Assembly: GCA_020059745.1 (NCBI GenBank)
Contig: JAGVBK010000004.1
Location: forward strand, 100,797 to 164,796
Origin: Candidatus Shapirobacteria bacterium
GTDB taxonomy: Bacteria; Patescibacteriota; Microgenomatia; UM-FILTER-40-11
Direction of reading: 5' to 3'
Length of the DNA stretch: 64,000 nucleotides
Shown: piece by piece, positions 26,374 to 48,100 of the stretch
How the letters are laid out: each line of letters starts with the position of its first letter
Position numbering within the stretch: the stretch's first letter is position 1
Position numbers and translations under genes: made by a program
Notes under the pieces: generated by a model
Databases searched by the model: none
The model's input: only the letters and a program-made list of their open reading frames with translations
Told to the model about the DNA's origin: nothing

Positions 26374-28086
26374 TTACTTTTGCATTATATTAAAAAGAGC
26401 TGACTTTAAACTGATTGCGCCCGGCGCTCTTAAGTTAAAGACATGCTTAAATTCCTCGCCGGTGAATTCCTTTCTTCCTTTGTCTGTATCAATGTAAACC
26501 TTAGAGGTATAACCATCATTTGAATAGAAAACTTCGACATTATTGATTTTTGCAACCGGGCCGCCGTGTTTTGACGCTTCGGCTGCCATTTTATCCTTGC
26601 TCCAGCCTTCCTGGTCATAAAGACACCGGTCAGTAGGAAAGATGCCGCTCACATCGCCGCCGTTTGAATAAATAAGAGCAGCGTTAACAATGTCAGCAAA
26701 CTCCGTCTCGGTTAGCCAGGGGTGGCTTCTTCCGCATGTCTGGGCCGAGCGTGTTTTGTACCAAGCTTTGTAAAACCAAGGAGACTCTGCCACTTTTTCA
26801 TAAGCCTGGCTGGTCCAACCGCTTCTGCCATTAGACGTATCCCAGAGCCCGGGGGTTGTATGGCCATTGTGGGAATAAGAATAGGTATAACCGCCCGCAG
26901 TTGAGGCATACCAAGCAGAAAAAGGTTTACCGCCGGCAACCAGAACCCAACCCCTGGTGGCATTAACCGCTTCGTCCCATTTGCCGCCTTTATTGGCTGG
27001 TTTGTAAACTTGACAGGATTCAGTCGCACAAATTGAGCCTGCACCATTATTTGTATAGGCCAGGGCATAAGAACGGGCTGCCACTGCCTGGGCCTTAAGA
27101 GCCTCAAATCCACCTTTATCCCCCCACGAAGTAGGCATTTCATAAATTCTTTTAACATAAGTTTCTATATCAACCGTTCCGTAACCCTGAACAGTAATAT
27201 TAATTCCGGTTGAATAATCCTTTTTAAGCTCTACCCCACCATAGTAGGCACGAAGAATCTCTTCTGCTGATTGCCCGGATTTTGCCCGACCGTAAGCGCC
27301 GTACTGGCTCATTCCTTTGCGGTGCGGAGCACCAAAAGAAAAGGCAGCAAAAGCAGGCGAAAAACCAGGGTTATAGTCAGGCCGTGAAGCCGGATCATCA
27401 GCCAAAGGCACATCACCAACAGAAGTAGAAAAACCGCCTTCTTTCATGGCCAAAAGCTCTTTTTGTTTTGCTTTTATCTTGGCAAAAAATCCCTCTGTTT
27501 TTTCAACCTCCCCTTCTAAAAATTCAACTTGTTTGCTTGCCTGTGCTTTAAGCGAAGACAGAGAAGCCTGGTTCTTTTTCAAAGACTCTTTATCGTTTTT
27601 TAAAGTCACCAGTTTTTGGGAAATTGAAGTAATTATCTGCCAATCCTGCTGGGCAGCAGTGCGGCGCAAGGCAAGGCCCTGGCTAAAATCTGAAACAGAT
27701 TTTGAGGAAAGAAGCAAAGTTAAAATATTAAACTCCCTTTCTCTTTTATACATTTCTCTTAGCCTGGCAGATAAAAGTTCTTCCTGGTCTCCCAAGTCTT
27801 CTTCTCTAACTTTAATTTCTTTTTCTGTTTCTTTGAATTGCCTGTCCAGACTTGCCAGTCTGGCATTAAAAGAAGCAAGCTGTTTTTTGTATGTTTCCAG
27901 GTCGGTTTTATTTTTTTCGTGAGCATCTTTTCTGGCATCATACTCACGCTGAAGCTCGGCAACTTGGCAGTCCCAATCAGTTGCCGGACAACCCTGGGCC
28001 TTAACGGAAAAGCTAATAAAGAAAGCGGTTGCCAGTAATCCTAAAAAAAAGAGCAAAAATAACCTTAGCTTATTATGAAGAGACAT
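26374..28086 (-). CDS. SpoIID/LytB-domain protein with an N-terminal coiled coil
   Basis: Signal peptide, a long coiled coil, then the SpoIID/LytB signature GFEALKAQAVAARSYAL. Confidence 0.6.
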   Translation of the reverse strand: MSLHNKLRLFLLFFLGLLATAFFISFSVKAQGCPATDWDCQVAELQREYDARKDAHEKNKTDLETYKKQLASFNARLASLDRQFKETEKEIKVREEDLGDQEELLSARLREMYKREREFNILTLLLSSKSVSDFSQGLALRRTAAQQDWQIITSISQKLVTLKNDKESLKKNQASLSSLKAQASKQVEFLEGEVEKTEGFFAKIKAKQKELLAMKEGGFSTSVGDVPLADDPASRPDYNPGFSPAFAAFSFGAPHRKGMSQYGAYGRAKSGQSAEEILRAYYGGVELKKDYSTGINITVQGYGTVDIETYVKRIYEMPTSWGDKGGFEALKAQAVAARSYALAYTNNGAGSICATESCQVYKPANKGGKWDEAVNATRGWVLVAGGKPFSAWYASTAGGYTYSYSHNGHTTPGLWDTSNGRSGWTSQAYEKVAESPWFYKAWYKTRSAQTCGRSHPWLTETEFADIVNAALIYSNGGDVSGIFPTDRCLYDQEGWSKDKMAAEASKHGGPVAKINNVEVFYSNDGYTSKVYIDTDKGRKEFTGEEFKHVFNLRAPGAISLKSALFNIMQK

Positions 28087-28888: not shown

Positions 28889-29593
28889 TTACTTGCCAAA
28901 CCTTCTTTGTCTTCTTTGGTATTCCAAAATTGCCCTATCAAGCTCTTTTGGACCAAAGTCCGGCCATAAGGTGTCGGTAAAATAAAGCTCAGAGTAAGAA
29001 AGCTGCCACAAAAGGAAATTTGAAAGCCTAACCTCTCCTCCTGTTCTTATAATTAAGTCGGGGTCGGGCTGGCCGTTGGTGTAAAGGTGTTTAGAAACCA
29101 GCTCCTCATTTACTTTGTCAGCCGGAACGCCTTCTTTGATAATTTCTTTTATTGCTCTCACAATCTCGTCCCTTCCGCCGTAGTTTAAAGCTAAGTTAAC
29201 CTTTATTCTTTCGTTTTTTAAAACAATTTTAAGCATTTCGCTGATTGCCCGGGCTACTCTTCGCGGAAAAGCCTGAAAATTACCTAAAACAAAAAGTTTT
29301 ATCCCTTCTTTTTCATAGTCTTCTTTTTTTTCTTTGACAATTCTTAAAAGCAAGTCAAAAATGCCGGCAACTTCTTTGGTGGTTCTTTTGCGCCAATTTT
29401 CCGTTGACAAGGTGTAAACCGTCAGGTTCTTTACTCCTAATTCTTTGCACCTTTCCACAATTCTATCAAGATTTCTGGCGCCTTCTTCATGACCTTTATT
29501 GGCGTCTAAATCTCTTTTATCCGCCCAGCGCCTGTTCCCGTCCATAATTATGGCAATGTGGTGAGGTATTGCTTTTTTGTCAATTTTTTCCAT
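28889..29593 (-). CDS. uppS: Undecaprenyl diphosphate synthase (isoprenyl transferase)
   Basis: HIAIIMDGNRRWA and the C-terminal RTGGEVRLSNFLLWQ. Confidence 0.9.
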   Translation of the reverse strand: MEKIDKKAIPHHIAIIMDGNRRWADKRDLDANKGHEEGARNLDRIVERCKELGVKNLTVYTLSTENWRKRTTKEVAGIFDLLLRIVKEKKEDYEKEGIKLFVLGNFQAFPRRVARAISEMLKIVLKNERIKVNLALNYGGRDEIVRAIKEIIKEGVPADKVNEELVSKHLYTNGQPDPDLIIRTGGEVRLSNFLLWQLSYSELYFTDTLWPDFGPKELDRAILEYQRRQRRFGK

Positions 29594-29644
29594 TTTTTCC
29601 CTTGCAAGAAAAAAATTTTAACACCAAGCTCTCAAAGCACAACT

Positions 29645-30712
29645 TTAATAATCACGATGAAGAACAAAGTCAACGGCAAGTCTTAAGTTTTTTCTGGCAG
29701 GATTATTTTCTAAAAACAAAAGTTCATTGTCAAAGTATTCTTTTGCTTCTTCGGCGAGGTTTTCAGCAATATTCTGAGCATAACTAAGGCTGCCATAACT
29801 TTTCATCATCTCAATTACCTTTAAAACCTCTTTTTCTGTTTTTTCCTCCTTGTTTTTTTCTAAAATTACTTTGAGCTTTTCTTTATCCTTTTTTTTAGCT
29901 GCCTTTAGCAGGTGCATTAACATTAAAGTTCTTTTGCCTTCAATTATATCGCTTCCTTTTTGCTTTTTAAGACCCTTAAAATCAGAAGTTAGATCAAGAA
30001 GGTCGTCTTTAATCTGAAAACACCGCCCCAAAAGCTGGCCAAAGAAGTAAAGCTTTTTTAGCTCGTTTTTATCTGCATTCCCGATAATGGCTCCAAGCCT
30101 CATTGGTCCGGCAATGGTGTAGTAGGAGGTTTTACCGTCAAGAATTAAAAAAATATCTTCATTCTCTAACTCAGTTTTATTCTCTTTTGCCCATTTTATT
30201 TCCACGGTCTGGCCAAAAGTAGTTCTTTTTAGCATTTGGTAAAACTCACAAGCAACTTCTTCTGCTTTTTTAGGGCCCAAAACTTTGGTGTTATCCCAAA
30301 GCATTTTCCACATTAAAACATGAAGGCTGTCGCCGGCATTAATAGCCAACTCTTTTCCATAAATCCTGTGCAAGGCAGGCGCTCCCCTTCTTTGCAAAGA
30401 ATCATCCTCAAAATCGTCATGGATAAGAATCCAATCTTCAGAGGTCTGCATGGCCGCAGCTGTTTTCAAGGCCGTTTTTTCCTGTGCCCCCATTGCTTCA
30501 GCTGTTAAAAGAAGCAAAGTGGGTCTTATGTATTTTCCTCTTCTTTCGGGATATGCAGAAGTAATTTCCCTATGGAAAGAAAGAAGGTCTTTATATTTTT
30601 CAGCAATTTCTGGGTTTTCTGGAAAGAAATTAAGGTCAGACAAATACTTTTCAATCTCTTTCCAAACAAATTCTTTTTTTTCTTTTAAGACCTCTTCAAA
30701 AGCACTTGGCAT
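29645..30712 (-). CDS. Trans-polyprenyl diphosphate synthase (IspA/IspB family)
   Basis: First DDxxD in LIHDDFEDD, second in FQIKDDLLD. Confidence 0.85.
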   Translation of the reverse strand: MPSAFEEVLKEKKEFVWKEIEKYLSDLNFFPENPEIAEKYKDLLSFHREITSAYPERRGKYIRPTLLLLTAEAMGAQEKTALKTAAAMQTSEDWILIHDDFEDDSLQRRGAPALHRIYGKELAINAGDSLHVLMWKMLWDNTKVLGPKKAEEVACEFYQMLKRTTFGQTVEIKWAKENKTELENEDIFLILDGKTSYYTIAGPMRLGAIIGNADKNELKKLYFFGQLLGRCFQIKDDLLDLTSDFKGLKKQKGSDIIEGKRTLMLMHLLKAAKKKDKEKLKVILEKNKEEKTEKEVLKVIEMMKSYGSLSYAQNIAENLAEEAKEYFDNELLFLENNPARKNLRLAVDFVLHRDY

Positions 30713-30752: not shown

Positions 30753-31124
30753 TTGTTGTTTAATCAATTAAAAGAGTTTATAAAAATGAAAAAGCTTCTT
30801 TCAGTAAATATCGGTGAACAATGGTTAATAAGTCCGGACAAAACAATAGCCGAGGCTGAACAATTTGATTCCCCAGGTGCCCTTATCTCGATTATTTTAA
30901 AAAATGTCTATACGCTTGCCGGAATTCTTCTTTTGGTTTTATTGATTTTCGGTGGCATTTCCATTATCATAGGCGCAGGTGAAAACGATCCAAAAAGGGC
31001 AGCTCAAGGCAAAAAAACAATCATTACTGCCCTAACCGGATTTTTAGTTATTTTTACCAGTTATTGGATAATACAATTAATTAGTTATATAACCGGAGTT
31101 CAAATTCTAAACCCATTAATTTAA
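30753..31124 (+). CDS. TrbC/VirB2-like pilin paralog 3
   Basis: GAGENDPKRAAQGKKTIITALTGFLVIFTSYWIIQLISYITGVQIL. Confidence 0.55.
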   Translation: MLFNQLKEFIKMKKLLSVNIGEQWLISPDKTIAEAEQFDSPGALISIILKNVYTLAGILLLVLLIFGGISIIIGAGENDPKRAAQGKKTIITALTGFLVIFTSYWIIQLISYITGVQILNPLI

Positions 31125-31127
31125 AAA

Positions 31128-31487
31128 ATGGCATTACTAGAAGAAGGAACAAGTTTTTTTGGCGATATTGCTGCCCCTCCAGGAGTTGATAAACATGGTG
31201 CGGGCTTTGAAAATGGATTAATGGGCTTTGCCAACACTCTCTTAAAACTTGTCATTCTCGGTGCGGGTCTTTATGCTTTTGTTAACATAATTATCGCTGG
31301 CTATACTTTTCTCGGCGCTGGCGGTGATCCTAAAAAGGTAGAGCAAGCTTGGGCGAAAATCTGGCAATCTTTACTCGGTCTGACCTTTGTGGCAGGCTCG
31401 CTTGTTCTGGCAGGGATCTTTGGCTATTTAGTATTTAAAGATCCCACGGCAATAATTAATCCAAAAATCTATGGTCCAGAAAATTAA
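31128..31487 (+). CDS. TrbC/VirB2-like pilin paralog 4
   Basis: GAGGDPKKVEQAWAKIWQSLLGLTFVAGSLVLAGIFGY. Confidence 0.5.
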   Translation: MALLEEGTSFFGDIAAPPGVDKHGAGFENGLMGFANTLLKLVILGAGLYAFVNIIIAGYTFLGAGGDPKKVEQAWAKIWQSLLGLTFVAGSLVLAGIFGYLVFKDPTAIINPKIYGPEN

Positions 31488-31875
31488 CAAAACCTTCTTG
31501 GCAGCAGGTCCAACTGGAAAACCATTGGGTTCTTTTGAAGGAATCGGACCTTTCGGAACAGGGACCTCCGACTGGTCAGAAACATGCGGCGAGGCCGGCC
31601 AGGCTGGTTGTCTTTTTGCCCAGATACTTTCCTTAATCCTTGGCGTTGTTACAATCATCGCCTTTATCTGGTTTATTATCTCTGTTTTTACCGCTGCTTT
31701 CGGGTTCCTAGCCTCAGGAGGAGATAAAGTTAAAACTCAAAATGCTCAAAAACAACTCACTAATGCTCTTATCGGTCTTGTTTTAATTATTTCTTCGCTC
31801 TTTTTTGTCAAACTGGTGGGAGTGGTTTTTGGAGTTGATGTTCTTTCAATTAATGATTTATTAAACGCCCTATGA
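31471..31875 (+). CDS. TrbC/VirB2-like pilin paralog 5
   Basis: ASGGDKVKTQNAQKQLTNALIGLVLIISSLFFVKLVGVVFGVDVL. Confidence 0.55.
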   Translation: MVQKINKTFLAAGPTGKPLGSFEGIGPFGTGTSDWSETCGEAGQAGCLFAQILSLILGVVTIIAFIWFIISVFTAAFGFLASGGDKVKTQNAQKQLTNALIGLVLIISSLFFVKLVGVVFGVDVLSINDLLNAL

Positions 31876-32216
31876 ACTATACAGATACTGCAGGTAATGC
31901 GGGGAAAATTATAAACCCCATTCTCTCCGATGAGTTAAATGAACTCTCTGGCCAAGCATTTTTCCAGCAATTGGTTAGCACTTTAATTGGATTAGGATTT
32001 GTTGTCGGTGTAATTGTCTTTGTTTTTCTTTTAATTGTCGGAGCAATAAGATGGATTACTTCAAGTGGAGACAAGGCAGCAACCGAAGGGGCGAGAAAAC
32101 AAATTACTAATGCCTTTATAGGCCTTGTGCTTCTTTTTTCTGTTTTTGCTATAATCAGATTGGTAGAAACTATCTTTGGTATTAATATTTTAGAGTTAAC
32201 CATACCAACTCTTTAA
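31872..32216 (+). CDS. TrbC/VirB2-like pilin paralog 6
   Basis: SSGDKAATEGARKQITNAFIGLVLLFSVFAIIRLVETIFGINIL. Confidence 0.55.
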   Translation: MNYTDTAGNAGKIINPILSDELNELSGQAFFQQLVSTLIGLGFVVGVIVFVFLLIVGAIRWITSSGDKAATEGARKQITNAFIGLVLLFSVFAIIRLVETIFGINILELTIPTL

Positions 32217-32227
32217 CCTGAAAGGGG

Positions 32228-32659
32228 GTGAACATGAATAAACTTAGCAAAACACTATTAACTGCTTTTTCTTTTGCAGGCTATGCCATGTTGCTACCTG
32301 CTTCAGTCTTTGCCGAAGATATTAATCTTGGTCCAACTGTTCTGCCAGAAGGTTTTGGAGGAGCCGCTGGAATTACTGTTCAATCTTTTGTTTCAGGAGC
32401 TATAAGATTGCTTTTGGTAGTTGCTGCTTTAGCTTTCTTTTTTATGCTTGTTGTTGGCGGCATTCAGTGGATTTTCTCAGGTGGAGATAAAGCAGCCACG
32501 GAATCAGCTAGAAAGAAAATCACTAACGCTTTAATCGGATTGGCGATTGTTTTTGCCGCTTGGGCAATCGCAGCTTTGATAAAAACTCTTTTTGGGGTTG
32601 ACATTTTAACCTTAGACATTCCGACTTTTACTACAACAGCACCAACTCAGTCCCAATAA
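32228..32659 (+). CDS. TrbC/VirB2-like pilin paralog 7
   Basis: SGGDKAATESARKKITNALIGLAIVFAAWAIAALIKTLFGVDIL. Confidence 0.55.
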   Translation: MNMNKLSKTLLTAFSFAGYAMLLPASVFAEDINLGPTVLPEGFGGAAGITVQSFVSGAIRLLLVVAALAFFFMLVVGGIQWIFSGGDKAATESARKKITNALIGLAIVFAAWAIAALIKTLFGVDILTLDIPTFTTTAPTQSQ

Positions 32660-32746
32660 AGAAGTTTCCGTATTTTGAGAATAAAGCACCGGGAAACCGG
32701 TGCTTTTTGTAAGTTTATTCTCTCTCTATTTTGTGCTAAACTTTAG

Positions 32747-33166
32747 TTGATGAAAAAAATTGTGTCTTTTTTACTTGCTCTTGCAGTTCTCTTTTCTTTT
32801 TCAAACTCCCTTTTTTGTGCCCAGGCACAGGGAACCGAAGAGTGGAGCGACATTGACCAAAAATGCGTGGTAACGGCTGATGACGGGACAACGGTTGCTA
32901 CCATTCAGGGACTCGAATGCCTTTTTATAAACATTACCCGCATTTTAACTCCAATTTTTGGGATTGCTCTTTTTTTTATGCTTGTTGTTGGCGCTTTTCA
33001 GATGATTACCTCCGGAGGCGATCCCAAACAGGCTCAAAAAGCAAGGCAGACAATTACCTACGCTATTTTTGGGTTGATTGCTTTTGTCGGCGTTTGGTTT
33101 ATTCTGAAGCTAATTTATTTTGTCACCGGTGTTGATGTCACCAAATTTGAAATTCCTAGCCTTTAG
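32747..33166 (+). CDS. TrbC/VirB2-like pilin paralog 8
   Basis: SGGDPKQAQKARQTITYAIFGLIAFVGVWFILKLIYFVTGVDV. Confidence 0.55.
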   Translation: MMKKIVSFLLALAVLFSFSNSLFCAQAQGTEEWSDIDQKCVVTADDGTTVATIQGLECLFINITRILTPIFGIALFFMLVVGAFQMITSGGDPKQAQKARQTITYAIFGLIAFVGVWFILKLIYFVTGVDVTKFEIPSL

Positions 33167-33184: not shown

Positions 33185-36118
33185 ATGAAAAAAATATTTA
33201 TTTTCTTTCTGTTTTTAGCCTTCCTTTCTTTTTTAAAACCTGTTTTTGCCTACAGCCAAAACAAAGCAGGAATAAACATTGCCGCCAACCATCACGAACT
33301 TGAAAAAGCAGCTGAAATTGTTGGACCAGGAGGTTGGGTTGTAATCATGGCCTGCCCAAGTGATGGAGATAAAATTGCCAGCTTCATTGCCAGTCATCCG
33401 CAAATAAATGTAGTTGTAAGAGGCCATTTTGCCGGCAATACCCCTAATGCGGATTTAGCTAAATCATGGGCGGCTACACTAGCAAGCATTCCCTCAACAA
33501 ATAAAATCTATTTTGTTCCCTGGAATGAACCAAACCAGGCAGGTACAGCTGATTATGCAACTCCAGAAGAGGTAGTGGGGTTTGTTAGTGACCTAACTTT
33601 AAACTTTCAACAAACTATGGGCAGTTCGTGGAAGAATAAAGTTATTCTCCTCTCTCCGATGATGAACCAAACACATTACAATTTTTCTGATTATGTTCAC
33701 CAAATAAGAGCAGTAAAATCAAGTTTTTTTGGCCAATTTGACGGTATTGCTTTTAGTCTTTATGATCTTTGTGATACTCCCCTTACCTGTGACAGTAAAT
33801 ATCTTAATCCTTTAAAGATCGAGGAAGTGCTAGGAGAAATGGGAGCAACAGGAAAACCAATCTTTGGAATTGAGGCGGGAACGGCTGGTAACAATTTTTA
33901 CTGGAAGATGGCGCCAAGTGCCGGTTCACCCTTGTTTCAGTTTGTTGACAGTTATCTTGACAGGTCTCCAGGATCAGTGAAGATGTTTGCAATTCCCTCT
34001 TATGACCTAGCTGGTGAAGTTGGTCATTCCTGGAGCCTTTTTGACCCTCCTGATGTTGCAAATCTTTTAAGGAGTGCCCCCGACGGGGGCACAACTTCTG
34101 CTTCGGGGGTTAGTCAAAATATCACCATGAAGAAATGTCCTGGCCGAAACTATACCTTTTACGAAAACAGTGAAAGCGAATGCATTGAGTGCGGCGGGAG
34201 CGGCTATTCACTTTTGTCTTGTTTGCCACTTTCGGGAGAAGAATACGGAGAGGAATATAGTAAAGAAACTTTAAAAATTTCAGAAACAGTTGGTTATCAA
34301 AACGACTGTACAACTGTAAATTTTACCGGAAAACTTTCCGCCTCAAATGTCTCCATTCCTTTTGCCAGAAACCTTAACCTCTTTTTCATTGGTCCTTATA
34401 TGGACAACCTGGCTGCCCGAGTGGCAAAACAAAACCCAAACCCAATAAAAGATTACGGCGTAATCGAAAAGATTGCATCTGTAGAACTTCAAGATGATCT
34501 CAGGCTTAAATTTCTTTCAGAAATAACCAACGGCCACCCCACTCGCTATTCTGGTTTTAATATCCAAGGAGTTGGAGCAAACGAACTGGCTTCAAGATTT
34601 AAGAGCATTGATAAAAAAAGAAAAGAAAGAAGAAGATTAACTGAAAATGAAGAAATATTTCTTAAAAAAATTTGGCCACAGGTTCCTCTTTTTGCCAACG
34701 AAGAAACAGACGGCGAAATCATTTTTGAGGGAAGCGGTATAAGCGGCTCAATTAAAACCTCAATACCGGAAGTTTACCGTCTTGATAAAGTTACCCAGCT
34801 TATTGCCCAAATGTTGGGACTGAAAAATAACCACGTTGCCGGCGAACAGGTAATAAATCCGCAGGTCTTAGCCAAAGATTGTGAGAAAACACCTAATCTT
34901 CCGAAAATTGTTAGCGATAAAGAAACTCTTAGCGGCCCTTCAGACCCTGTCTGTACGGATAATAACCTTCAGGAAAATCCTCAAGAAATAATTGAGGGAG
35001 AAAGAACTTATGACCACTCAGACTTTGATACAAGAAATATGGGAGGTTGTGAAGGTAAACCTCCAAATGGCTGTTGCGGAACCGGAGGAAAATGCTTACC
35101 TAAAGGAGACTTAGCCATTCCCGGAGTTTGTTCAGCCGGAGAGTGTGATTGTAAAAGCTGTGATTCTGAGGATTTTTGCTATTCAGGAAGCCATTATCCG
35201 GGATGTGAAGTGCCAAAGCCAGAAAAGACCTTCGATATTGATATTAGTATTAAAAACAGGGTTCCTTTTTTAAAAAGAATTTCAGAAAACACCGTTGGTC
35301 CAAATGGAATTTTCAGAATTTTTGTTCCTCTAAATGAGGACTCTTCCTCTGCAAATAGAATAATCAGCCACGCCTTTCGCGAAGTTGCCGGTGAATCAAA
35401 AGCAAGCCTTGAAATGGACAATTTTCAGGTTAAATCAGCCGTTGGAGTTGAAATCGATCCAGAAAGTAGTCAGGATTTAATCACCTTGCTTTTTCACAAG
35501 CTTGGAACTGTATTTAACGCTAAAAACTTAGTCGCTGGAATGGAACTTTGGCCCTTTGGGCAAGGAGGAACCGTAGCCAACCCTGACCCATTTAGTCCAG
35601 CAGTCTCGGATATCACTAATTTCGAGACCCTTTTTGAAACCATAGGAAACACAATCGGGGTGCCTCCAAAAATTCTGGCTGCGATCATGCAAATCGAAAG
35701 TCCAAGCACCTACAACCTTACTGCTGAACAAATCAACACCTATTCCCAACCAGAAGTTATTATGCCTGGTTGTGGTCCTAACGAGTGTTCGGCTACCGGA
35801 CCGATGCAAATGACAACGGGGATTGATCGCAACGGAAGCCCTTCTTGCTCAGAATGTTGTTGGAAAGGAAAGTGTCTTACTGAATGCCCAAACCAATGGT
35901 CTGTTTACGGACAAGGAAACCCTTGTAACTTAGCTGATAATATTACTGCTGCAGCAAAAAAATTAAAACATGATAGTGGTGCAACCTCAATGGATTGGAC
36001 AAGAGAGCAAGTTTACGAAGCTGCCTACCACTATTACGGCAATTGCACAGTTGCTTATGAAAGATTGGGAAACAGAACCTATTGTGAATTTGTCTGGTGG
36101 TATTACACGGCAAGATAA
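33185..36118 (+). CDS. Large secreted multidomain cell-wall hydrolase with an N-terminal TIM-barrel glycoside-hydrolase-like domain (NEP motif), a Cys-rich middle and a C-terminal lytic-transglycosylase (SLT)-like domain
   Basis: Signal peptide. FVPWNEPNQ resembles the GH5-type NEP catalytic motif. The C-terminal ILAAIMQIESPSTY...GPMQM matches the SLT ES...Q pattern. Many CxxC clusters. Confidence 0.5.
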   Translation: MKKIFIFFLFLAFLSFLKPVFAYSQNKAGINIAANHHELEKAAEIVGPGGWVVIMACPSDGDKIASFIASHPQINVVVRGHFAGNTPNADLAKSWAATLASIPSTNKIYFVPWNEPNQAGTADYATPEEVVGFVSDLTLNFQQTMGSSWKNKVILLSPMMNQTHYNFSDYVHQIRAVKSSFFGQFDGIAFSLYDLCDTPLTCDSKYLNPLKIEEVLGEMGATGKPIFGIEAGTAGNNFYWKMAPSAGSPLFQFVDSYLDRSPGSVKMFAIPSYDLAGEVGHSWSLFDPPDVANLLRSAPDGGTTSASGVSQNITMKKCPGRNYTFYENSESECIECGGSGYSLLSCLPLSGEEYGEEYSKETLKISETVGYQNDCTTVNFTGKLSASNVSIPFARNLNLFFIGPYMDNLAARVAKQNPNPIKDYGVIEKIASVELQDDLRLKFLSEITNGHPTRYSGFNIQGVGANELASRFKSIDKKRKERRRLTENEEIFLKKIWPQVPLFANEETDGEIIFEGSGISGSIKTSIPEVYRLDKVTQLIAQMLGLKNNHVAGEQVINPQVLAKDCEKTPNLPKIVSDKETLSGPSDPVCTDNNLQENPQEIIEGERTYDHSDFDTRNMGGCEGKPPNGCCGTGGKCLPKGDLAIPGVCSAGECDCKSCDSEDFCYSGSHYPGCEVPKPEKTFDIDISIKNRVPFLKRISENTVGPNGIFRIFVPLNEDSSSANRIISHAFREVAGESKASLEMDNFQVKSAVGVEIDPESSQDLITLLFHKLGTVFNAKNLVAGMELWPFGQGGTVANPDPFSPAVSDITNFETLFETIGNTIGVPPKILAAIMQIESPSTYNLTAEQINTYSQPEVIMPGCGPNECSATGPMQMTTGIDRNGSPSCSECCWKGKCLTECPNQWSVYGQGNPCNLADNITAAAKKLKHDSGATSMDWTREQVYEAAYHYYGNCTVAYERLGNRTYCEFVWWYYTAR

Positions 36119-36119
36119 A

Positions 36120-36524
36120 ATGAAGAAAAAAAGGCTTTATCTTTTTGTTAGTATTGTTCTTTTATTTTCTGCTTTTGTTCTTTTTAACTTTGTTATTCCT
36201 GTAAAAAAAGCTCCGAAGATAAACTTTTTTATTCCTAAAACAAAGGAGCAATCTAGAGAGGATATTCAATTAAAAGAAGAGGTAACCGGCAGTAAAAAAA
36301 CAAAACTTGAAGAATATAACCGCTATAGTTTTAAAGATATAAGCCTCGAATACAGAGCAAATAAGTTGGTTATTGTTTTTTTTAAAAACTCACTTAAAGA
36401 AGCACAAAAACAAGTTAGCGATTTTTTTCAAAACCAAAACTTAGATCCTAATGAATATAACTTCGAGTATATTGACCTTAATAAAAGTGATAAAGAACCG
36501 CCTTCCGGGTTTGGGCAGTCTTGA
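36120..36524 (+). CDS. Hypothetical signal-anchored protein
   Basis: The ORF-track start at 35970 overlaps the upstream gene. The internal ATG at 36120 (MKKKRLYLFVSIVLLF) gives a non-overlapping signal-anchored protein. Confidence 0.4.
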   Translation: MKKKRLYLFVSIVLLFSAFVLFNFVIPVKKAPKINFFIPKTKEQSREDIQLKEEVTGSKKTKLEEYNRYSFKDISLEYRANKLVIVFFKNSLKEAQKQVSDFFQNQNLDPNEYNFEYIDLNKSDKEPPSGFGQS

Positions 36525-36566: not shown

Positions 36567-38141
36567 ATGAAAAAAAATAATTTTTTTAAGCTACTTATCC
36601 CTGCTTTTATATTTTTCTTCTTTTTTGGGACAAATAAAACCTACGCCTCTATCCCAATCGGCACTGGAGAGGATTGCACAACTTCGCAAGACTGTCTTCG
36701 TGAATATGGTATGGGAACTTGTATAAATAGGGTCTGCGTCACTACTCAAAATGATATTCTTGAATTCCAAAGAGAAGTTGAGGCAGGTAAAAACGGAAAC
36801 CCTAATTTATCCTGGTTCTCAAGTGAAGTGTTTGGCAAGGTTGCTGATGCCGGTGTTTCGGAAATTTTTGGCAATATTCCTGAAGGAGAAACTTCCCAAT
36901 CGTACGTCCCCGGAGGAGTTATCGGAAGCCTGGGGAAAATGCTTTCTTCCTTGTATGCCATTCCTCCGGCTTCTGGAGGAGAATACATTGCCTCCATAAA
37001 AAGAGACCTTGGAGTAGTAAGCCCGGCTTATGCCCAAGGCATAGGCTTTGAAGGCTTAAGGCCAGTTCTTGAAATCTGGAAAACATTCAGAAACATCTCT
37101 TACATATTCTTTGCCCTAATTGCCCTTTATATTGGTTTTGCTATCATGTTCAGACTTAAACTTGACCCAAGAACTGTTATCTCCATTCAAAATTCACTTC
37201 CTAAACTAGTAGTTGCTTTTCTTTTGATTACTTTTTCCTATGCCATTGCCGGACTTCTTATTGATTTGTCTTACATCCTCATGTTTATAATCATGAACAC
37301 AGTCGGAGAAATAACCTTTGGAAGACTTGAGTACGATGGCTTTGCTGATTTTACCAATTTTCTTACAGGCAGGACTTACGATAACAACAACTGGTTTTTT
37401 GTTGGCAGATACCTCGCCCAGGTTATTCTTCTTACTGTTGGCTCGCTACCAAAAATTCTTCCTATTTTGCTCTTTCCGGTAGCTAGGTTAATTTTTGGGG
37501 CCATAATAATCTATGTCTTACTTAAAATCTTATACCAAGTGCTGATATCTTACGTTAATATTGTGCTTCTGGTAATTTTTGCCCCTTTCCAGCTTCTTGT
37601 TTCGGCCTTACCAGGCAATAAAGATGGCACTAAGTGGTTTAGAAATTTAATCGCAAACATTGCAGTTGTACCAACAATACTAACGATGTTCCTTTTGGCA
37701 GGTTATTTTTTAAGCTTCGACGCTTTTAACTTTTCTTCAGAAAACGCTCTTGATGTTATTGAGGCAACGTGGGAGTCGATAAGAGGAATCTTTACTGCGG
37801 ATGGAGCTTTTGCCAGCATCCAAAATGTTCTTACCTGGGCAGCCACTCAGTTAATTGGTTTTGGCCTTTTTGTTATGATCCCTAAAGTAACAGACATGGT
37901 TAAGTACACACTGCAAATTAAGGGTTATGACTTCCCGTCTGCAATCGGCGAAACAATGTCTGGAGCTTATGAAAGAAGTTTTGGCAAAGAAGCTTCCAAA
38001 TATGCCCAAGCGCAAAGGCTGTATGAAAGCAATCCTTGGTTGTATCCCGATCCTTCCACTGTGGGTGCCTTTTCTAGATTTAAAGGTGTGAAAGACTGGT
38101 TTGGCAGAATGGGGGCCAAGACTGAAGGCGGAAGAAAATAA
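36567..38141 (+). CDS. Polytopic membrane protein with a Cys-rich secreted N-terminal domain, possibly VirB6/TrbL-like
   Basis: Signal peptide, a Cys-rich region, then at least six TM helices. Sits inside the pilin / VirB4 cluster. Confidence 0.35.
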   Translation: MKKNNFFKLLIPAFIFFFFFGTNKTYASIPIGTGEDCTTSQDCLREYGMGTCINRVCVTTQNDILEFQREVEAGKNGNPNLSWFSSEVFGKVADAGVSEIFGNIPEGETSQSYVPGGVIGSLGKMLSSLYAIPPASGGEYIASIKRDLGVVSPAYAQGIGFEGLRPVLEIWKTFRNISYIFFALIALYIGFAIMFRLKLDPRTVISIQNSLPKLVVAFLLITFSYAIAGLLIDLSYILMFIIMNTVGEITFGRLEYDGFADFTNFLTGRTYDNNNWFFVGRYLAQVILLTVGSLPKILPILLFPVARLIFGAIIIYVLLKILYQVLISYVNIVLLVIFAPFQLLVSALPGNKDGTKWFRNLIANIAVVPTILTMFLLAGYFLSFDAFNFSSENALDVIEATWESIRGIFTADGAFASIQNVLTWAATQLIGFGLFVMIPKVTDMVKYTLQIKGYDFPSAIGETMSGAYERSFGKEASKYAQAQRLYESNPWLYPDPSTVGAFSRFKGVKDWFGRMGAKTEGGRK

Positions 38142-38148: not shown

Positions 38149-40215
38149 CTACATTCCAAATCTTTTCCTGTTTCTTTTTATCCTTCTTCTAATGATTTCT
38201 CTCCTGCCAAAGTATTTATCCATTCTCATGTGCTTTCCTAAATTATTCGGATTATTTAAATTCACGCCGTTTAAATCTTTAAAAGCTTTTTCTCTTGCTT
38301 TCTTAACAGGCATTTCCATTGTCGCATACAGCCTGTCATCTCCCAAAACCTGGGTAAGTATAAGATCATAATGTTCATAGCTTATATTAAGCAAAATGTC
38401 TGAGGAATAGTTAGCAGGCCCTTGCATCATGCCAATTACCGCCCCTTCAAGAAGTTCAATATCAGAATAAACATCTGAAAGTAATTTAGACCGTCCTGTC
38501 CTTAGCTTTGACAGTGCCGTTGCCAATTCTTGGACTGTCGGGTTTTTAGCTTTACTTTGGATTATGTAATATATTCTTTTTGCCGAATCCATCAAATCGC
38601 CGTAGCCTGGCCAAAGCTCTCCGCTTCCAATTTTACTAAGGCCGACATCTTCAGGATTAACATAATCAAAAAGGCCTGACCCGGGTTCAATTTCTTTTTT
38701 CCTTGAGAGAACCAGGGTTTGAGCTAAGGTAGGAGGAGTTTCTCTTCTTTTTTTGTCTCCTTCCCCAACGTTTGTTAAATCAAACAGGCTAAAAAACATT
38801 CTCTTTGGCATAAAATTAATTTTGCCTTCTTCAAATTTTTTTCTGAATTTTAGATCATGCCTTATTCTCTCTGCGTACCAATCGCCAAGATTCCCCCCCC
38901 AACTTTCATCTGTTCCAAAGTCTTCTTTGCCTGTAAGCCACTTACCACGACCTTTGTCTTGTGGTCTAAAAAAAGCCCTTATCTGTTCTGCGTATACATT
39001 TCCATTTCTTATATGTCTTCCCACATCGCCTGAGTCAGGTGCGTTTCCTACAAAAATTAGATTCCAGGCAACTGAAAAAGCAGCCAAGGCCGATACTTCA
39101 GGCGACGAATCAGGACCTCCCATCGTGTTTTCTGGAGTTAAAAGTTCGGGGTTCTCTTTAAAGTATTTTGTTAATTTATCAACAAACTTTTCTTTATAAT
39201 CGTCAAAGTTAGTTAACTCCTCAAGTCCTTTTTTGTCTACATATAAACTTCCAGTGTTACTTAAGAGAAAAAAATCATTAAACATTGTTGCCATGGCAAT
39301 CCTAAAACCAGGCATGTGGTTCCACATAGTAATTAAGGCTTCTTTATTAACTCTAATATCTCTCCTGTCTGTATAGTCATCAAGGCTTAAGTGGGCAGCT
39401 TCCCTTTTAATATAACTTCCCAAAAGAATTCCCAACCTAGTCCTAATTACATTTTTCCACCTTTCCGGTAAACGATCATACCAAACAGGAGGCTGAGTAT
39501 CAAAAAGTTGAACATTTAAACCTGCCTGAGCCGACTCTGCAGAAACAAGACCGCTATAACCCGTAACCCTAAAAGCTTCATATTGTTCCCTTTGCATCTC
39601 TATTGTTTCAGCCTGAAACTGGTCTTGCCGCGAAAGGCTTCTTTCCTCAATTCTAATTATCTGGTCAAGTTTCTCGGCAAGTTGATTGTCAGGCGAACGA
39701 GAGGTAGGGCTTTCCTCAACAGGGGTTTGTGTGAGACTGTTTCTTAGAAGATTAAGTCTTTCTTCAGCATACCATCTTATAACCCCATAGTGGGGGTCAT
39801 CTTCAGAAAGACCCCATTCCTTGTCTAAATCTCTTGCTTGTCTTCTTTCTTCTCTTATATCCTCTGCGGTAAGACGCCCTTCTCTTTTTTTTGCCTCTAG
39901 ATCTTGGAGTACATCCGTAAAAGGCTTAAAAGCTCCCTCGTCTTGTAAGTCTTGTACAAGACCTTGTATTCTCCCTCTTACTTCACTGATCACATCGTTA
40001 ATCTTTCTTTTTTCTTCCTCTTCAGTTGTTTTTCTCAAACGGGAGAGAAGCCGCTCTCTTTCTTTTAAGGCATCAATAAAAGACAGTTCGCTTACTGGCT
40101 TTTTGCTGGACTCTGGATTAACTGTTTGTCCTAGTTCTGATTTATTCATATTTTCACTTGGTTGACTATCGACACTTTCGGGCATGGTACTAAAATTATA
40201 GCAAAAATCAAGCAA
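38149..40215 (-). CDS. Hypothetical protein, 688 aa, with an acidic/coiled N-terminal third and a basic C-terminal tail
   Basis: Clean long ORF on the opposite strand inside the T4SS-like cluster. No motif recognised. Confidence 0.4.
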   Translation of the reverse strand: MLDFCYNFSTMPESVDSQPSENMNKSELGQTVNPESSKKPVSELSFIDALKERERLLSRLRKTTEEEEKRKINDVISEVRGRIQGLVQDLQDEGAFKPFTDVLQDLEAKKREGRLTAEDIREERRQARDLDKEWGLSEDDPHYGVIRWYAEERLNLLRNSLTQTPVEESPTSRSPDNQLAEKLDQIIRIEERSLSRQDQFQAETIEMQREQYEAFRVTGYSGLVSAESAQAGLNVQLFDTQPPVWYDRLPERWKNVIRTRLGILLGSYIKREAAHLSLDDYTDRRDIRVNKEALITMWNHMPGFRIAMATMFNDFFLLSNTGSLYVDKKGLEELTNFDDYKEKFVDKLTKYFKENPELLTPENTMGGPDSSPEVSALAAFSVAWNLIFVGNAPDSGDVGRHIRNGNVYAEQIRAFFRPQDKGRGKWLTGKEDFGTDESWGGNLGDWYAERIRHDLKFRKKFEEGKINFMPKRMFFSLFDLTNVGEGDKKRRETPPTLAQTLVLSRKKEIEPGSGLFDYVNPEDVGLSKIGSGELWPGYGDLMDSAKRIYYIIQSKAKNPTVQELATALSKLRTGRSKLLSDVYSDIELLEGAVIGMMQGPANYSSDILLNISYEHYDLILTQVLGDDRLYATMEMPVKKAREKAFKDLNGVNLNNPNNLGKHMRMDKYFGRREIIRRRIKRNRKRFGM

Positions 40216-43169: not shown

Positions 43170-45156
43170 AAAAATAAAAAATAAAATTCCGGCAAAAAAG
43201 AAAGTAGGTCAGGCGGAAACTAACCAAAGCCAAACCAACTCTCAATCGATTTCACCAAAACCAGTTAGTCTGGACTCCTGTGTCCAGGATGTAATCGCCC
43301 CCTCCGCCATTGAAGTAGATTTTGACTACCTAAAAATAAACAATCATTACACAAGAACCCTTTTTGTTGCCGGCTATCCTCGCTACGTAAGCGCTAACTG
43401 GCTTTCTCCTTTAATAAATTTTGACCATTCTTTGGATATTTCTCTTTTTGTTTACCCTGTTGAAAGCAAATCGGTTTTAGATGATTTGAGAAGAAAAATT
43501 GCAGAAATGGAAGCAGAAATCTCAACAGACATTGAAAGAGGTAAGGTAGTTAACCCTGCCACGCAGGCAAAACTTGAAGATGCAATTACCATGCAAGAGC
43601 AGCTGGTTAAAGGTGCAGAAAGATTTTTTCAGTTTGCAATTTACATCACTATCACCACAGAGACACTCGAAAAGCTAAACCAAGTTTCCAAAGGAGTTGA
43701 ATCAACCCTGGCCGCACTGCTCATTATCCCCAAGCACGCTACCTTACAAATGGAAGAAGGTTTTAAAAGCACCTTGCCTATTTGTGCCGATTATCTAAAC
43801 ATTACCAGAAACATGGATACCACTTCTTTGGCAACTACCTTTCCTTTTACTTCTTCTGAGTTGACTGCCAACGAAGGAATCATGTACGGCATAAACGAGC
43901 ATAACGGTTCTTTAATTGTTTTTGACCGCTTTACCTTAGAAAACTACAACAGTGTTGTTTTTGCTAAAGCCGGTGCCGGTAAAAGCTATATGGTTAAGCT
44001 TGAGGTTTTGCGTTCTTTAATGTTTGATTCTGAAATTATTATCATTGACCCTGAAAACGAATACGAAAGGCTTTGCAGCGCAGTGGGCGGAGAAAATATA
44101 AGCTTTGGCTTTAACTCTAAGGCTAAGGTTAATCCTTTTGATCTTTCCCAGGTTTATGAAGAAGGAGAAAACGAGCTTAATAATAAAATCCTTTCCCTTC
44201 ACTCCCTTTTTAAAGTCATTATGGGAAATCTTTCTGCTACTGAAGAAGCTATCCTTGACAGGGCGCTAATGATGACTTACCAGATGAAAGGAATAACCCA
44301 AGATCCGGAAACCCAGAAAAAAGAGCCGCCGCTTATGGAGGACCTTTTCAAGGCTTTAATCGGCATGGAAGACCCTCAAGCTCGCTCGCTTGCCGACAGA
44401 ATTGAAAAATTTGTTAAAGGCTCTTTTACCGGTATCTTTGACCAGCGCTCAAACATTGATATAAAAAACCCCTTTACTGTTTTTTCTTTAAGAGATCTTG
44501 AATCGACATTAAGGCCTATTGCAATGTTTATAATTTTGGATTTTATCTGGACCAGAGTTAAAAAAGACTTAAGAAAAAGGATATTAGTAGTTGACGAGGC
44601 TTGGTTTATGATGAGAAGCAAAGATTCAGCCGAGTTTCTTAATTCGATCGCCAAAAGGGCCAGAAAATACTATCTTGGCGTCACTACCATTACTCAAGAT
44701 GTTGAAGATTTTCTTAAAGATGATCTTGGTAAGGCAATTGTCACCAATTCCTCAATTCAGGTTCTGATGAAACAACACCCGGCAGCCATTGATAAGGTTG
44801 CTCAGGTTTTTTACCTCTCTGAGGGAGAAAAACAATTTTTGCTTGCCTGTGATGTCGGTGAAGGCCTGTTTTTTGCCGGTGAAAATCATGTTGCGATGCG
44901 GGTTATTGCCTCTTCGGAGGAACACCAGCTTATCACCTCAAAACCGCAAGAAATAATCCAGAGAAAAGCGGCTAATAAAGAAAGCCCTGCAGCAACTGCC
45001 CAAGAAAGTAAAAAAGAAGCGGCTAAGGAAGTTGTTATGGAAAATATAGCGCCCCAAACCAGCCAAAACACTTCTATAAATCAAAGCAATCCTTTGCCTC
45101 CTAAATTCAAAAGTGAGATAATAATGGATAATGCCACAAGAGACAGCAACCAATAG
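43156..45156 (+). CDS. VirB4/TraC/TrbE-like T4SS ATPase
   Basis: Walker A FAKAGAGKSY and Walker B RILVVDEAWFM, with overall VirB4-like spacing and size. Confidence 0.7.
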   Translation: MEILKKIKNKIPAKKKVGQAETNQSQTNSQSISPKPVSLDSCVQDVIAPSAIEVDFDYLKINNHYTRTLFVAGYPRYVSANWLSPLINFDHSLDISLFVYPVESKSVLDDLRRKIAEMEAEISTDIERGKVVNPATQAKLEDAITMQEQLVKGAERFFQFAIYITITTETLEKLNQVSKGVESTLAALLIIPKHATLQMEEGFKSTLPICADYLNITRNMDTTSLATTFPFTSSELTANEGIMYGINEHNGSLIVFDRFTLENYNSVVFAKAGAGKSYMVKLEVLRSLMFDSEIIIIDPENEYERLCSAVGGENISFGFNSKAKVNPFDLSQVYEEGENELNNKILSLHSLFKVIMGNLSATEEAILDRALMMTYQMKGITQDPETQKKEPPLMEDLFKALIGMEDPQARSLADRIEKFVKGSFTGIFDQRSNIDIKNPFTVFSLRDLESTLRPIAMFIILDFIWTRVKKDLRKRILVVDEAWFMMRSKDSAEFLNSIAKRARKYYLGVTTITQDVEDFLKDDLGKAIVTNSSIQVLMKQHPAAIDKVAQVFYLSEGEKQFLLACDVGEGLFFAGENHVAMRVIASSEEHQLITSKPQEIIQRKAANKESPAATAQESKKEAAKEVVMENIAPQTSQNTSINQSNPLPPKFKSEIIMDNATRDSNQ

Positions 45157-48100
45157 GGGTTATAGACAGAATCTTGGTTCATTTATTGTTTATGCTTCTT
45201 CCTTTATTGATGGTGAAAACAGAAAGCAAAGGATTGATAACTCCGAGTCCTTCCAAAAAGTAAACAATCAAGTCAGATTTCTTCTTGTTGGTCTTGGACT
45301 TTCCGATATGGAAACTTTTGAAGATCTTAATTTTGAAGAATCTGTTGATATTCTTAAAAAGTACCTTAGTTCTATCGAAGAAGATCCTTCAGGTGCCAGT
45401 ATTCCAGTAAACTTAAAAGAGCTTGTTGAAAACTTAAACGATAGAGATAATCAAAAAATAGACCAGGAAATCAGTCGGACATTGCAAGATCTAAGAAGAG
45501 TAACAAACCTGAAAACTGTTTTAGCTCAGTCACTAGGGCAAAAAAATTTTTTTACCGATAAAGAAGACGAGGTGGCAAGCTTGGTCCTCGAAAACAGCAG
45601 TGTTGCCAATAAAATTGAGCAAATAGAAAAATCCAGCCTGGAAAAGGACCAAAAAGAAGAAGAAATTAAACAAGTCTGGCAAGAAGCTTGGAATGAAGCA
45701 GTAGAGCAAACAGGTTTAAAAATTACAAAAGACTTACCGGTTGAAAAAATCAGAGAAATTGCCTCAGAAATTAAAAATTATTTAGCGCAAAAAGATGAAG
45801 TCTACCAAATAATCAAAAAACATACTCCAGAAGGTGTTGATATTTTAACGGTTCCAAAAGCAGAAAATACTGCAGAAAAAGCAACTGAAATAGTTGAATC
45901 TATCTTAGCAGATAATGAACTTACGGAAATGGTTAGGGAAATTAAAGATTCTGCTCTCTCTCAACAGGAAAGAACAGAGAGAGTCCGGAAAATTCTACCT
46001 CAAGTTTTTAGAAAAGCAGTTGAAGATACCCAAACACAGACACTTGTCAGAGTAGAACCTACCCCTGAACAAATAGCGAAATTATCAGACCAACTTTTAT
46101 CCCCTGAACCACAAAAAGAAGTCTTAAAAATCTTGACTGAGACAATTATTAGTGAAAAGACTAAAGCCCCACTTCAAACACCTGTTGATCCCAAAGAAGT
46201 GGCTGAAATCTCTTCAGTTATTTTGAATGACAAAAAGCTAAAAAGCGAAATAACAAGAATCCTAGAAGACGAAGAGATTCCAAAGGAAAGTAAACCCAAG
46301 GAAATCGGACAGGCGGTCAAAAATACAATACTAACTATTGAAAAAACTGACCTTTCTCTAGAGCAAGTTCAGAAGGTTAGAAATCTCGAATTTTCTCCCG
46401 AAGAAAGCCAAAAGCTGGCAGAAGAAATTATCAAACCCTCCCCTCAAAGAAGAAATGTTGAAAAAACAGTTGAGTCTCTTATATTTCCGAAGGAAACATC
46501 ACCCTTGATACTGTCACAAGAAACAGAACAAGCACTTCTCCAAAATATCACAAACCTAGTTGTTGATGACAAAAATTTATCTCAACAAATTGAGGAAATT
46601 AATGCCAATCCAAATCTGAGCCTAAAAGAAAAAGACGAAAGAATAAGGAAAGTCTGGAACAGTACTTGGAAAAAAGCACAAGGAATAACCGGGCAAGAAA
46701 CCGCCAAAGAAATTCCCATTTCGCCAGAAGAAATAAATAAAATTGCTAAAGTCTCAAAAGAAAAAAGCAAAAAAAAAGAGAAAATAAAAGATGAAACTGT
46801 TGGAACAATTCCTATTTTTCATCAAAACCTTCTGATTAACCGTGAAGATGTTATTGCTAGAAACATAATTCTTAAAGAAGAAACGCTTCTTTCAATAGAC
46901 AAAACGCTTAACAATCCTCTTCTTTCGGGAAGGGAAAAAATTGAAACTATTGGTAAAATTTGGTCAGATGTCTGGGACAGGGCAATTGATCAATCTGGTT
47001 TAACACCAAAAGAAGCAGTAAAAACTAAAGAGCATGTATTTTCAACCCAAACAGTCAATCATTTCATTAAAGAGTTATCAAAACCCCAGGTCGATACTGG
47101 CATTGTCAGCGGAATAATAAAAGAATCTTTTAAACCTTTAACTAAAAAGCAACAAATTGCTGTCCAACAATTTCTTCTTCCTACTGTCGCTACCAACAGA
47201 GCCTTAGTCTCTGAACTGGGCTGGGAAAATGTATTTTTAATTTCTTTTGCTGAGATTGCACCAATCTTAACTAGCGAGGAATTCAATTTAAACTCTGACC
47301 AAGCACTAAACATAATAAAAAATTATTCACAAGTGGCTGAGAAAATGTCTCCTGCCGAGCAAGTAGGAAAAGAGATGTCTCCACTCACCCCTCAACTTGT
47401 TTTTTGGAAAAGACATTTTACCCCTTTAGTCAACATCAGTAAACCAGAAGGTAATCCTCAAGGAAACGCCTGGCTAGTTAAAGACGAAAGAGGAAGAACA
47501 ATTTTTGAAAATGTTAAGCTTGGAATTAATCTTGGACTAAGTCCAGAGCTTGCATTTCAATTCCAAAAAGAAGCAGGTGAAAGATTGAGTTTGCACTGGA
47601 CAACACAGGGAATTAATCCTCAAGAAATTCAGAAAACAAAAGATATAATTCTAAAATCTCTTGAAGAACTTCATGAATCAAAAAATTACGCCTTAATTAG
47701 CGATAGTGAACTTGTGGAAAACTATTCTAGATTCCAAAAAGAGTTACCGCAAAAGAAAGTAAATACATGGGCAAGCAATCGCATTAAAAGTATTTCAAAC
47801 CTAATAAAAGCCAAACCAACACCTTTCCCTAATAAAATTAAGACAGATATTAAAAAATGGTTTTTAAATACCAAAATAGGAAAACAGATCAAGGGGGTAA
47901 TCAGCACTTTTTCGCAAAATTCACTTCAGAAATTTTTTTCTACCACCCAAATTGGAATAAAAAAAGCAACAACCGCAGCAGTTTTTAAAATTCTTACAAA
48001 ATTAGGATTACAAGCTGTTGCAAATACATTAGCACCTGTTATCGGAACAATCATTGCCTTTGCGGCAGAAAAAATTATTAAAGCGGGAGTTAGGTTGGTC

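Follow-up and report, generated by a model that had tools for sequence, protein, structure and literature searches.

A putative two-headed envelope glycanase encoded behind the VirB2-like pilin array of a Patescibacteria type IV secretion locus

What is the function of a large secreted protein whose gene lies directly behind an array of pilin genes in a genome of Candidatus Shapirobacteria (Patescibacteriota)? The gene is found in a stretch of 64,000 nucleotides (assembly GCA_020059745.1, contig JAGVBK010000004.1, positions 100,797 to 164,796 of the forward strand; hereafter the window, in which all coordinates are given), and its product of 977 amino acids (aa) is GenBank RJR26051.1, the "hypothetical protein C4578_00215" of a Candidatus Microgenomates metagenome-assembled genome (MAG). 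The original prediction, made from the letters of the sequence, described a secreted protein in a type IV secretion system (T4SS) and pilus context that combines a GH5-like TIM-barrel glycosidase, Cys-rich modules and an SLT-like lytic transglycosylase. AlphaFold models show both the barrel with its pair of Glu residues and the lysozyme-like C-terminus on which that description hinged, and we consider it reasonably probable, though well short of assured, that the protein is a secreted, two-headed envelope glycanase which would serve the T4SS pilus in a VirB1-like manner. The parts of the gene and its product are as follows.

33185..36118, plus strand: open reading frame (ORF) of the two-headed protein, 977 aa, ATG start
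33185..33250, plus strand: predicted signal peptide, residues 1-22, MKKIFIFFLFLAFLSFLKPVFA, the sole hydrophobic segment
33251..34084, plus strand: (beta/alpha)8 barrel of clan GH-A type, a new sequence family, residues 23-300
33521..33535, plus strand: WNEPN, residues 113-117, with E115 as predicted acid/base; invariant, directly after model strand 4
33872..33874, plus strand: E230, predicted nucleophile, in G-[IV]-E-[AS]-G-T; invariant in all alignments, model strand 7
34136..34309, plus strand: first Cys cluster (C318, C333, C336, C346, C375), just after the barrel; all five invariant, 22/22
34172..35569, plus strand: middle scaffold, residues ~330-795, with long beta-hairpins, helical bundles and a Cys-rich insert
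34880..35206, plus strand: second Cys cluster, 12 Cys, residues 566-674, most of them conserved in 17-22 of 22 sequences
35621..36115, plus strand: "type A" lysozyme-fold domain, GH23/SLT-like, residues 813-977, 10 Cys
35696..35698, plus strand: E838, predicted catalytic Glu; invariant in 19 sequences, last residue of model helix 39-49
35798..35809, plus strand: G-P-M-Q, residues 872-875, counterpart of SLT G-L-M-Q; G, M and Q invariant

The ORF proved real, and export through the Sec pathway fits its N-terminus, where residues 4-22 (MKKIFIFFLFLAFLSFLKPVFA, followed by YSQ) form the only hydrophobic segment of the protein and resemble a signal peptide whose cleavage we infer. All homologues share the same protein start, which continues as A-[QE]-N-K-x-G-[IV]-N in an alignment of 22 near-full-length relatives (A1). 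Searches with the 977-aa protein against Pfam (E <= 0.1) and NCBIfam, and by phmmer against all PDB sequences, returned nothing meaningful; an NrdG-like match in NCBIfam (E 0.02) was noise, and a superoxide dismutase match from phmmer (E 0.017) was spurious. A word-indexed search of 5.8 billion proteins yielded 35 homologues, all of them unannotated, and the few with a named source came from MAGs of the candidate phyla radiation (CPR)/Patescibacteria. Full-text literature searches found no description of the family.

The first head was modelled as part of residues 23-795 with AlphaFold2, using an alignment of 36 sequences (A4) as input, and in the resulting model (predicted local distance difference test, pLDDT, 87.8) residues 23-300 form eight alternating strand-helix units. 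Clan GH-A enzymes share a "4/7" layout, in which strand 4 ends in an N-E-P motif with the acid/base Glu and strand 7 in the nucleophile Glu. The predicted structure shows this arrangement in a (beta/alpha)8 fold: E115, in the WNEPN motif that had rightly been singled out as the acid/base motif of the clan, directly follows model strand 86-89 (protein residues 108-111; strand 4), and E230 sits in model strand 204-211 (strand 7). W113, N114, E115, P116, N117 and E230 are invariant in the 22 close homologues of A1, while R79, N114, E115, Y193 and E230 are invariant across 27 diverse barrels (A7) and hold in relatives down to ~20% identity. In distant family members P116 is invariant or nearly so, and when 35 distant full-length members were aligned, W283 too proved nearly invariant. 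Judged by sequence, this conserved residue set is the catalytic signature of clan GH-A.

Membership of family GH5 did not hold up. No glycoside hydrolase (GH) family model matched the 977-aa protein at E <= 1, and the GH5 family model (PF00150, Cellulase) gave no significant match to it. When the A7 profile was compared with the PDB, only GH5 enzymes were matched, all below threshold (E 0.08-0.86), and in these alignments N-E-P pairs with the GH5 NEP and v-E-t-G with the GH5 ETG nucleophile motif. The Pfam model Glyco_hydro_cc (GH128) was touched by 4 of the 22 close relatives (best E 0.004) and matched by one distant barrel family member at 1.4e-7, and protein P0183 scored above its curated cut-off (PF11790; 23.4 vs 21 bits). 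Such matches appear to form thin bridges from the barrel to known GH families. Foldseek returned weak, generic TIM-barrel matches for the barrel model, and the structural scores placed GH26, GH39, GH1 and GH128 above GH5, with no single family standing out. Taken together, the fold and the placement of the Glu pair support a clan GH-A glycosidase, but not its assignment to GH5.

In structure the barrel has xylanases, glucanases and mannanases as its neighbours, and Patescibacteria are thought to live on the products of their many glycoside hydrolases (PMC11665869). Both points would suit a nutritional polysaccharide degrader that releases fermentable sugars, with the lysozyme-like domain harvesting peptidoglycan fragments. 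We regard this as very improbable, since Pfam scans of the window found no carbohydrate-binding module or sugar-uptake genes nearby, and since the conserved synteny with T4SS genes, the fusion to a lysozyme fold, the large scaffold and the conserved disulfide clusters, all described below, argue against it.

At the other end of the protein, the motifs ILAAIMQIES (residues 830-839) and GPMQMTTG (residues 872-879) had been read as an SLT/VirB1-type active site. Family membership in that sense found no support: Pfam SLT (PF01464), SLT_2 and SLT_3 do not match the 977-aa protein, divergent type A domains likewise fall short of Pfam SLT_3, and a profile built from 19 type A sequences (A2) matched no PDB sequence even at E <= 10. 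The fold, however, stood. AlphaFold2 run on A2 for residues 790-977 (pLDDT 89.6; predicted template modelling score, pTM, 0.85) gave a lysozyme-like alpha-helical fold with a candidate catalytic Glu at the C-terminal end of a helix, and the best structural matches of this model are family-1 lytic transglycosylases. In the model E838 closes its helix, the position that the catalytic Glu takes in SLT enzymes. Relatives share the pattern IMQIES...CSATGPMQMTTG...YYGNC, and the invariants of A2 comprise E838, C-S-A-x-G-x-M-Q-x-T-x-G-x-D, Y-x-G-x-C and eight Cys. Among the SLT motifs, G-[PL]-M-Q and Y-x-G are kept; the GH23/SLT motif set is not complete in type A. Because the model is confident, E838 lies at the helix end and G-P-M-Q is kept, the SLT/GH23 fold and active-site logic are supported, and the modelled type A domain can be placed in SLT/GH23 by fold, not by membership of the Pfam SLT family. 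It would act either as a lytic transglycosylase or as a hydrolytic muramidase. A search with residues 800-977 also found the type A module as stand-alone proteins of 250-300 aa that carry no Pfam annotation.

Could both heads instead be lectin-like pseudo-enzymes, and the whole a non-catalytic structural protein for instance a wall anchor or an adhesin at the pilus tip? One subgroup of GH128 binds oligosaccharides without catalysis (6ubc is among the structural matches), type A does not conserve the Ser of the SLT "E-S" motif, and the large scaffold suggests a structural role. Yet both Glu residues of the barrel, the supporting Asn, Arg and Tyr, and E838 are all invariant over very large distances. 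Such invariance is unexpected for pseudo-enzymes and disfavours a reading to which we give hardly any credence.

Between the heads lies a scaffold of ~470 residues that was modelled confidently, a loop-dominated Cys-rich insert included; the region of the second Cys cluster has little regular secondary structure in the model. The middle region found no match in Pfam/NCBIfam or when the A1 full-family profile was compared with the PDB, where a single dynein-complex match was spurious; matches to barrels took up the fold-search lists. The "Cys-rich modules" of the original prediction are three Cys clusters rather than repeats of a CxxC module, at residues 318-375 (5), 566-674 (12) and 863-967 (10), with 30 Cys in the whole protein. 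"Numerous CxxC/CxC clusters" was an overstatement, as there are two CxxC (333-336, 888-891) and one CxC (654-656), beside two CC pairs.

How widely do these parts occur, and in what combinations? When 1.84 billion representatives were searched exhaustively with a hidden Markov model (HMM) of A4, 559 clusters scored E <= 0.001, of which 138 reached E <= 1e-30. Local HMMs of barrel, middle region and the two C-terminal types were placed on 187 collected proteins. In more than 130 of these, 600-1800 aa in length, the barrel stood at the N-terminus; type A closes at least 18 barrel proteins and type B at least 30, whether the scaffold is present or not. The pairing of barrel and type A occurs with different linkers (at least 18 representative clusters). 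Among the A1 relatives the C-terminus after about residue 790 exists in two unrelated versions, type A being common to the query and five others. Type B shows the pattern WIEESGASG...DLGCL...SQLDCLF; in alignment A5, which covers the ends of P0004-P0021 (~145 aa), this reads WNPAFVxALWIEESGASG...DLGCL...SQLDCLF...FMCxYSEG, and it is absent from the window protein. That type B might be a diverged copy of type A was rejected, as hhalign gave no similarity, and the sole match of type B in the PDB was a weak one of its N-terminal part to a ryanodine-receptor repeat (E 2.4e-4). Each end module is also found by itself or joined to other partners, for example two type B copies with Peptidase_M23, and 2 of 35 distant barrel proteins carry Pfam SLT_3. 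The first head is exchanged as well: P0132 and P0133 keep the scaffold and the type B end and bear a canonical GH5 domain (PF00150, E 1e-8 and 1e-7) instead of the barrel, and these GH5 domains have no HMM homology to the barrel family that could be detected beyond the NEP stretch. Both are positional orthologues, and P0132 (locus L029, 2272-5217) fills the same slot behind a pilin array.

The claim of a T4SS/pilus context was borne out, both in the window and across distant CPR genomes. In the window, the 977-aa gene begins 18 bp past the last of six pilin ORFs, immediately downstream of the array as had been stated, and the neighbouring features are these.

30753..33166, plus strand: six consecutive VirB2-like pilin ORFs, each matching Pfam PF18895 (T4SS_pilin)
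36129..36524, plus strand: p131, small membrane-anchored protein, with homologues downstream of type A genes
36567..38141, plus strand: 524-aa polytopic membrane protein (TM524), ~5-6 hydrophobic helices in residues 177-439
38149..40215, minus strand: convergent 688-aa gene, no transmembrane (TM) segment and no family match
41467-42453, plus strand: PrgI/VirB3-like gene (Pfam/NCBIfam)
42492-43169, plus strand: TrsD/TraC-like gene (Pfam/NCBIfam)
43156-45156, plus strand: VirB4 ATPase (Pfam/NCBIfam), 7 kb downstream of the 977-aa gene
45131..48856, plus strand: 1241-aa protein with a C-terminal CHAP domain (residues 1137-1216), directly after VirB4
49482..52172, minus strand: dnaN and dnaA, immediately after the T4SS cluster

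The same gene order surrounds P0006, P0013 and P0001. A scan of GTDB species-representative genomes gave 18 loci, all from CPR MAGs and four of them cut off upstream, and in at least 10 of the 18 the barrel gene directly follows a pilin array and precedes a TM524 homologue, despite barrel identities of 22-36% and entirely different tails. The loci are labelled Microgenomates, Woesebacteria, Gottesmanbacteria, Roizmanbacteria and Pacebacteria, with a few bins evidently mislabelled; L006, L007, L013, L014 and L019 carry the labels Gammaproteobacteria, Clostridia or Pseudomonadales and are likely mislabelled or contaminated bins, one with an isolate name that contains "PATE". The gene thus stands inside a T4SS cluster and bears an N-terminal signal sequence, as a VirB1-like protein would. 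The intergenic gaps between the pilins, the 977-aa gene, p131 and TM524 are 18, 10 and 42 bp, which suggests one operon and, as far as spacing can tell, co-transcription of the 977-aa gene with the pilins and TM524; promoter and terminator scans at the locus gave nothing above chance.

Patescibacteria T4SSs have been described in a 2025 survey as related to monoderm conjugation machinery, situated near the origin, free of conjugation components and equipped with VirB2 arrays (PMC12102498). The dnaN and dnaA genes adjoin the T4SS cluster of the window, with a 212-aa Big_5-domain ORF between the CHAP protein and dnaN, and the whole locus is therefore origin-proximal, in agreement with that description. 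The same survey found most Patescibacteria with VirB2 arrays to be without VirB1, so that a VirB2-like pilus seems to form without a VirB1 homologue; these VirB1-profile negatives are compatible with a protein such as ours having been missed. VirB6 is scarcely detectable in Microgenomatia (PMC12102498), and TM524, which has no Pfam match, is a candidate VirB6/PrgH analogue. It has a Cys-containing N-terminal domain of ~150 aa and lies directly downstream of the barrel protein in most loci. A gene similar in size and orientation to the convergent 688-aa gene follows the membrane protein in L007, L024, L026 and L029 and is a conserved member of the locus; in the window a 322-aa ORF separates it from the PrgI/VirB3-like gene. 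The 1241-aa CHAP protein has two TM segments (~960-1046) and probably represents the canonical wall peptidase of monoderm T4SSs, extended here by a large N-terminal part; its counterpart in L002 is only 296 aa long.

Upstream of the pilins, on the minus strand (26374..28086), lies a gene for a peptidoglycan-active 570-aa protein with a PcsB-type coiled coil and a SpoIID domain. It is kept upstream of the locus in the relatives L001 and L002 and adjoins genes for polyprenyl and undecaprenyl-diphosphate synthases (28889..30712); in relatives, extra pilin-like genes adjoin it too.

With such wall genes (SpoIID/PcsB-like, undecaprenyl-diphosphate synthase) in the vicinity, with dnaN/dnaA adjoining the cluster and with stand-alone type A proteins beside clpB, groEL and other housekeeping genes, the 977-aa protein might be a general autolysin for wall remodelling in growth, division or turnover, unrelated to the T4SS, whose adjacency to the pilins is a frozen accident of an origin-proximal cluster. 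We think this unlikely. Very distant genomes keep the exact slot between pilin array and TM524 even as other parts of the protein change, and the short gaps suggest co-transcription with the pilins and TM524.

The small gene that follows, p131, encodes an N-terminal TM helix and a ~70-aa domain ending in EPPxGF. In 5 of 8 loci its homologues (L024 7329-7745; L028 5899-6333; L004 8525-8959; L005 3224-3646; phmmer E 2e-5 to 5e-20) directly follow a type A gene, whether type A is fused there or stand-alone, and it is absent from all three type B loci with a readable downstream gene. A type A gene and p131 together look like a two-gene cassette, and the type A enzyme may have in p131 its inhibitor, immunity protein or anchor.

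How might the two heads work together? We propose a Sec-exported, disulfide-rich accessory enzyme of a monoderm-type T4SS/VirB2-pilus system. The first head (23-300) would act, as a retaining beta-glycosidase whose acid/base is E115 and whose nucleophile is E230, on a beta-linked polysaccharide other than peptidoglycan, for example a secondary wall polymer, a capsule or exopolysaccharide, or a surface-layer glycan. The second (813-977), a highly diverged GH23/SLT lysozyme fold, would cut the MurNAc-GlcNAc bond of peptidoglycan by means of E838. The scaffold would hold both heads and probably dock them to the wall or pilus, and the two would open a local path through the envelope for the pilus or channel, a VirB1-like job missed by standard VirB1 profiles.

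Several observations weigh against this proposal. We know of no clan GH-A enzyme that cuts peptidoglycan, and the barrel's substrate is for that reason a guess. The activity of both heads is a prediction, and in type A a Ser follows the Glu, as in the SLT "E-S" motif, in just 9 of the 19 sequences. Most other A1 relatives end in type B, a module unrelated to type A, and P0012, P0017 and P0019 are without any C-terminal module. Stand-alone type A genes adjoin housekeeping genes, including clpB and groEL, so type A is not specific to the T4SS in itself, and no pilins were detected nearby in 3 of the 18 GTDB loci. The usual place of the wall hydrolase in monoderm T4SSs is right after VirB4; here the CHAP protein follows VirB4, and a second hole-puncher for the cell's own wall may therefore be redundant.

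The last point leads to the question of whose wall would be opened, that of the producer or that of a host, which we hold to be about equally probable. To our knowledge, every T4SS-encoded wall hydrolase characterised so far cuts the wall of its own producer, which speaks for the former. A host-directed "can-opener" on or along the T4SS pilus, which is one form of the proposal above, is possible but doubtful: the barrel would depolymerise a capsule, exopolysaccharide or wall glycan of the host and the lysozyme-like head would cut host peptidoglycan, leaving the cell's own wall to the CHAP protein, which already occupies the canonical slot after VirB4. A glycanase head not aimed at peptidoglycan makes more sense against a foreign surface, and p131 travels with type A as immunity genes do, although it is absent from 3 of the 8 type A loci. 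Highly variable architecture is typical of host-interaction proteins. In the present family it differs extremely between members, whose lengths span 600 to 1800 aa and whose heads and tails are swapped, and the pilin arrays of Patescibacteria are variable as well (PMC12102498). Their T4SSs, without conjugation components, are essential for epibiotic growth in Saccharibacteria (PMC12102498), and it has been proposed that lytic transglycosylases compromise the envelopes of hosts (PMC11665869). Against a host target stand the precedent of the characterised hydrolases, the lack of a known host for this lineage, a Sec signal with no obvious signal for pilus attachment or T4SS secretion, and the stand-alone type A genes among housekeeping genes.

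By analogy with the depolymerases of phage tail spikes, we can tentatively go one step further and picture a host-range-determining depolymeriser on or along the pilus of an epibiotic CPR cell, an extension that may well be wrong. The GH-A head, exchangeable with GH5, would strip the host polysaccharide, and the lysozyme-like head, exchangeable with type B, would breach the host peptidoglycan; p131 would be a membrane-anchored immunity protein or inhibitor, and the shuffling of modules would track host switches.

The two-headed glycanase proposed here bears on a system that is widespread in Patescibacteria, near the origin and essential for epibiotic growth in the one species tested, and whose role in Saccharibacteria a 2024 perspective called "completely unknown" (PMC11665869). 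Loci of the Microgenomatia type would contain a cryptic lysozyme-fold protein right after the pilins, invisible to sequence profiles, that fills the apparent VirB1 gap, and the fusion to a barrel points to a second polysaccharide barrier, other than peptidoglycan, for the T4SS machine. The analysis also adds new families, namely the barrel with its hundreds of representative clusters, a divergent GH23-like domain and the partner p131, and domain swaps may serve to mark host specificity. If the depolymeriser idea were true, it would give the Patescibacteria T4SS a concrete step of host-envelope penetration.

How does the protein compare with known systems? T4SS-associated wall hydrolases are of an already known kind; judging from structure prediction and synteny, what is new here is the pairing of two glycan-cleaving heads and two sequence families outside current profile libraries. 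VirB1, EtgA and IpgF are the GH23/SLT enzymes of T4SSs and type III secretion systems, and unlike them type A matches no SLT sequence model, is longer by ~40 residues of Cys-rich insertions, has four conserved Cys pairs, and forms the last sixth of a protein that also bears a GH-A barrel, in a monoderm CPR bacterium. PslG (GH39-like, PDB 4zn2) is part of a system for exopolysaccharide synthesis rather than of a secretion pilus, and has no lysozyme-like partner domain. Compared with GH128, GH5, GH26 and GH39, the barrel family is so far confined to CPR and always N-terminal in T4SS-locus proteins. In overall design the protein resembles PrgK (pCF10), TraG (pIP501), CwlT (ICEBs1) and TgaA, which are likewise large multidomain wall-degrading proteins of monoderm, MPF-FATA-like loci (PMC12102498). 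No peptidase domain was detected in the 977-aa protein by Pfam, whereas PrgK, TraG, CwlT and TgaA join a glycosidase (SLT/muramidase) to a peptidase (CHAP, NlpC/P60, LytM) and are membrane-anchored. In the window the CHAP domain is on a separate protein (45131..48856), and the gene of the two-headed protein follows the pilin array, not VirB4. Like those proteins, it carries two catalytic domains on one polypeptide, here predicted ones, both of which would cleave glycans.

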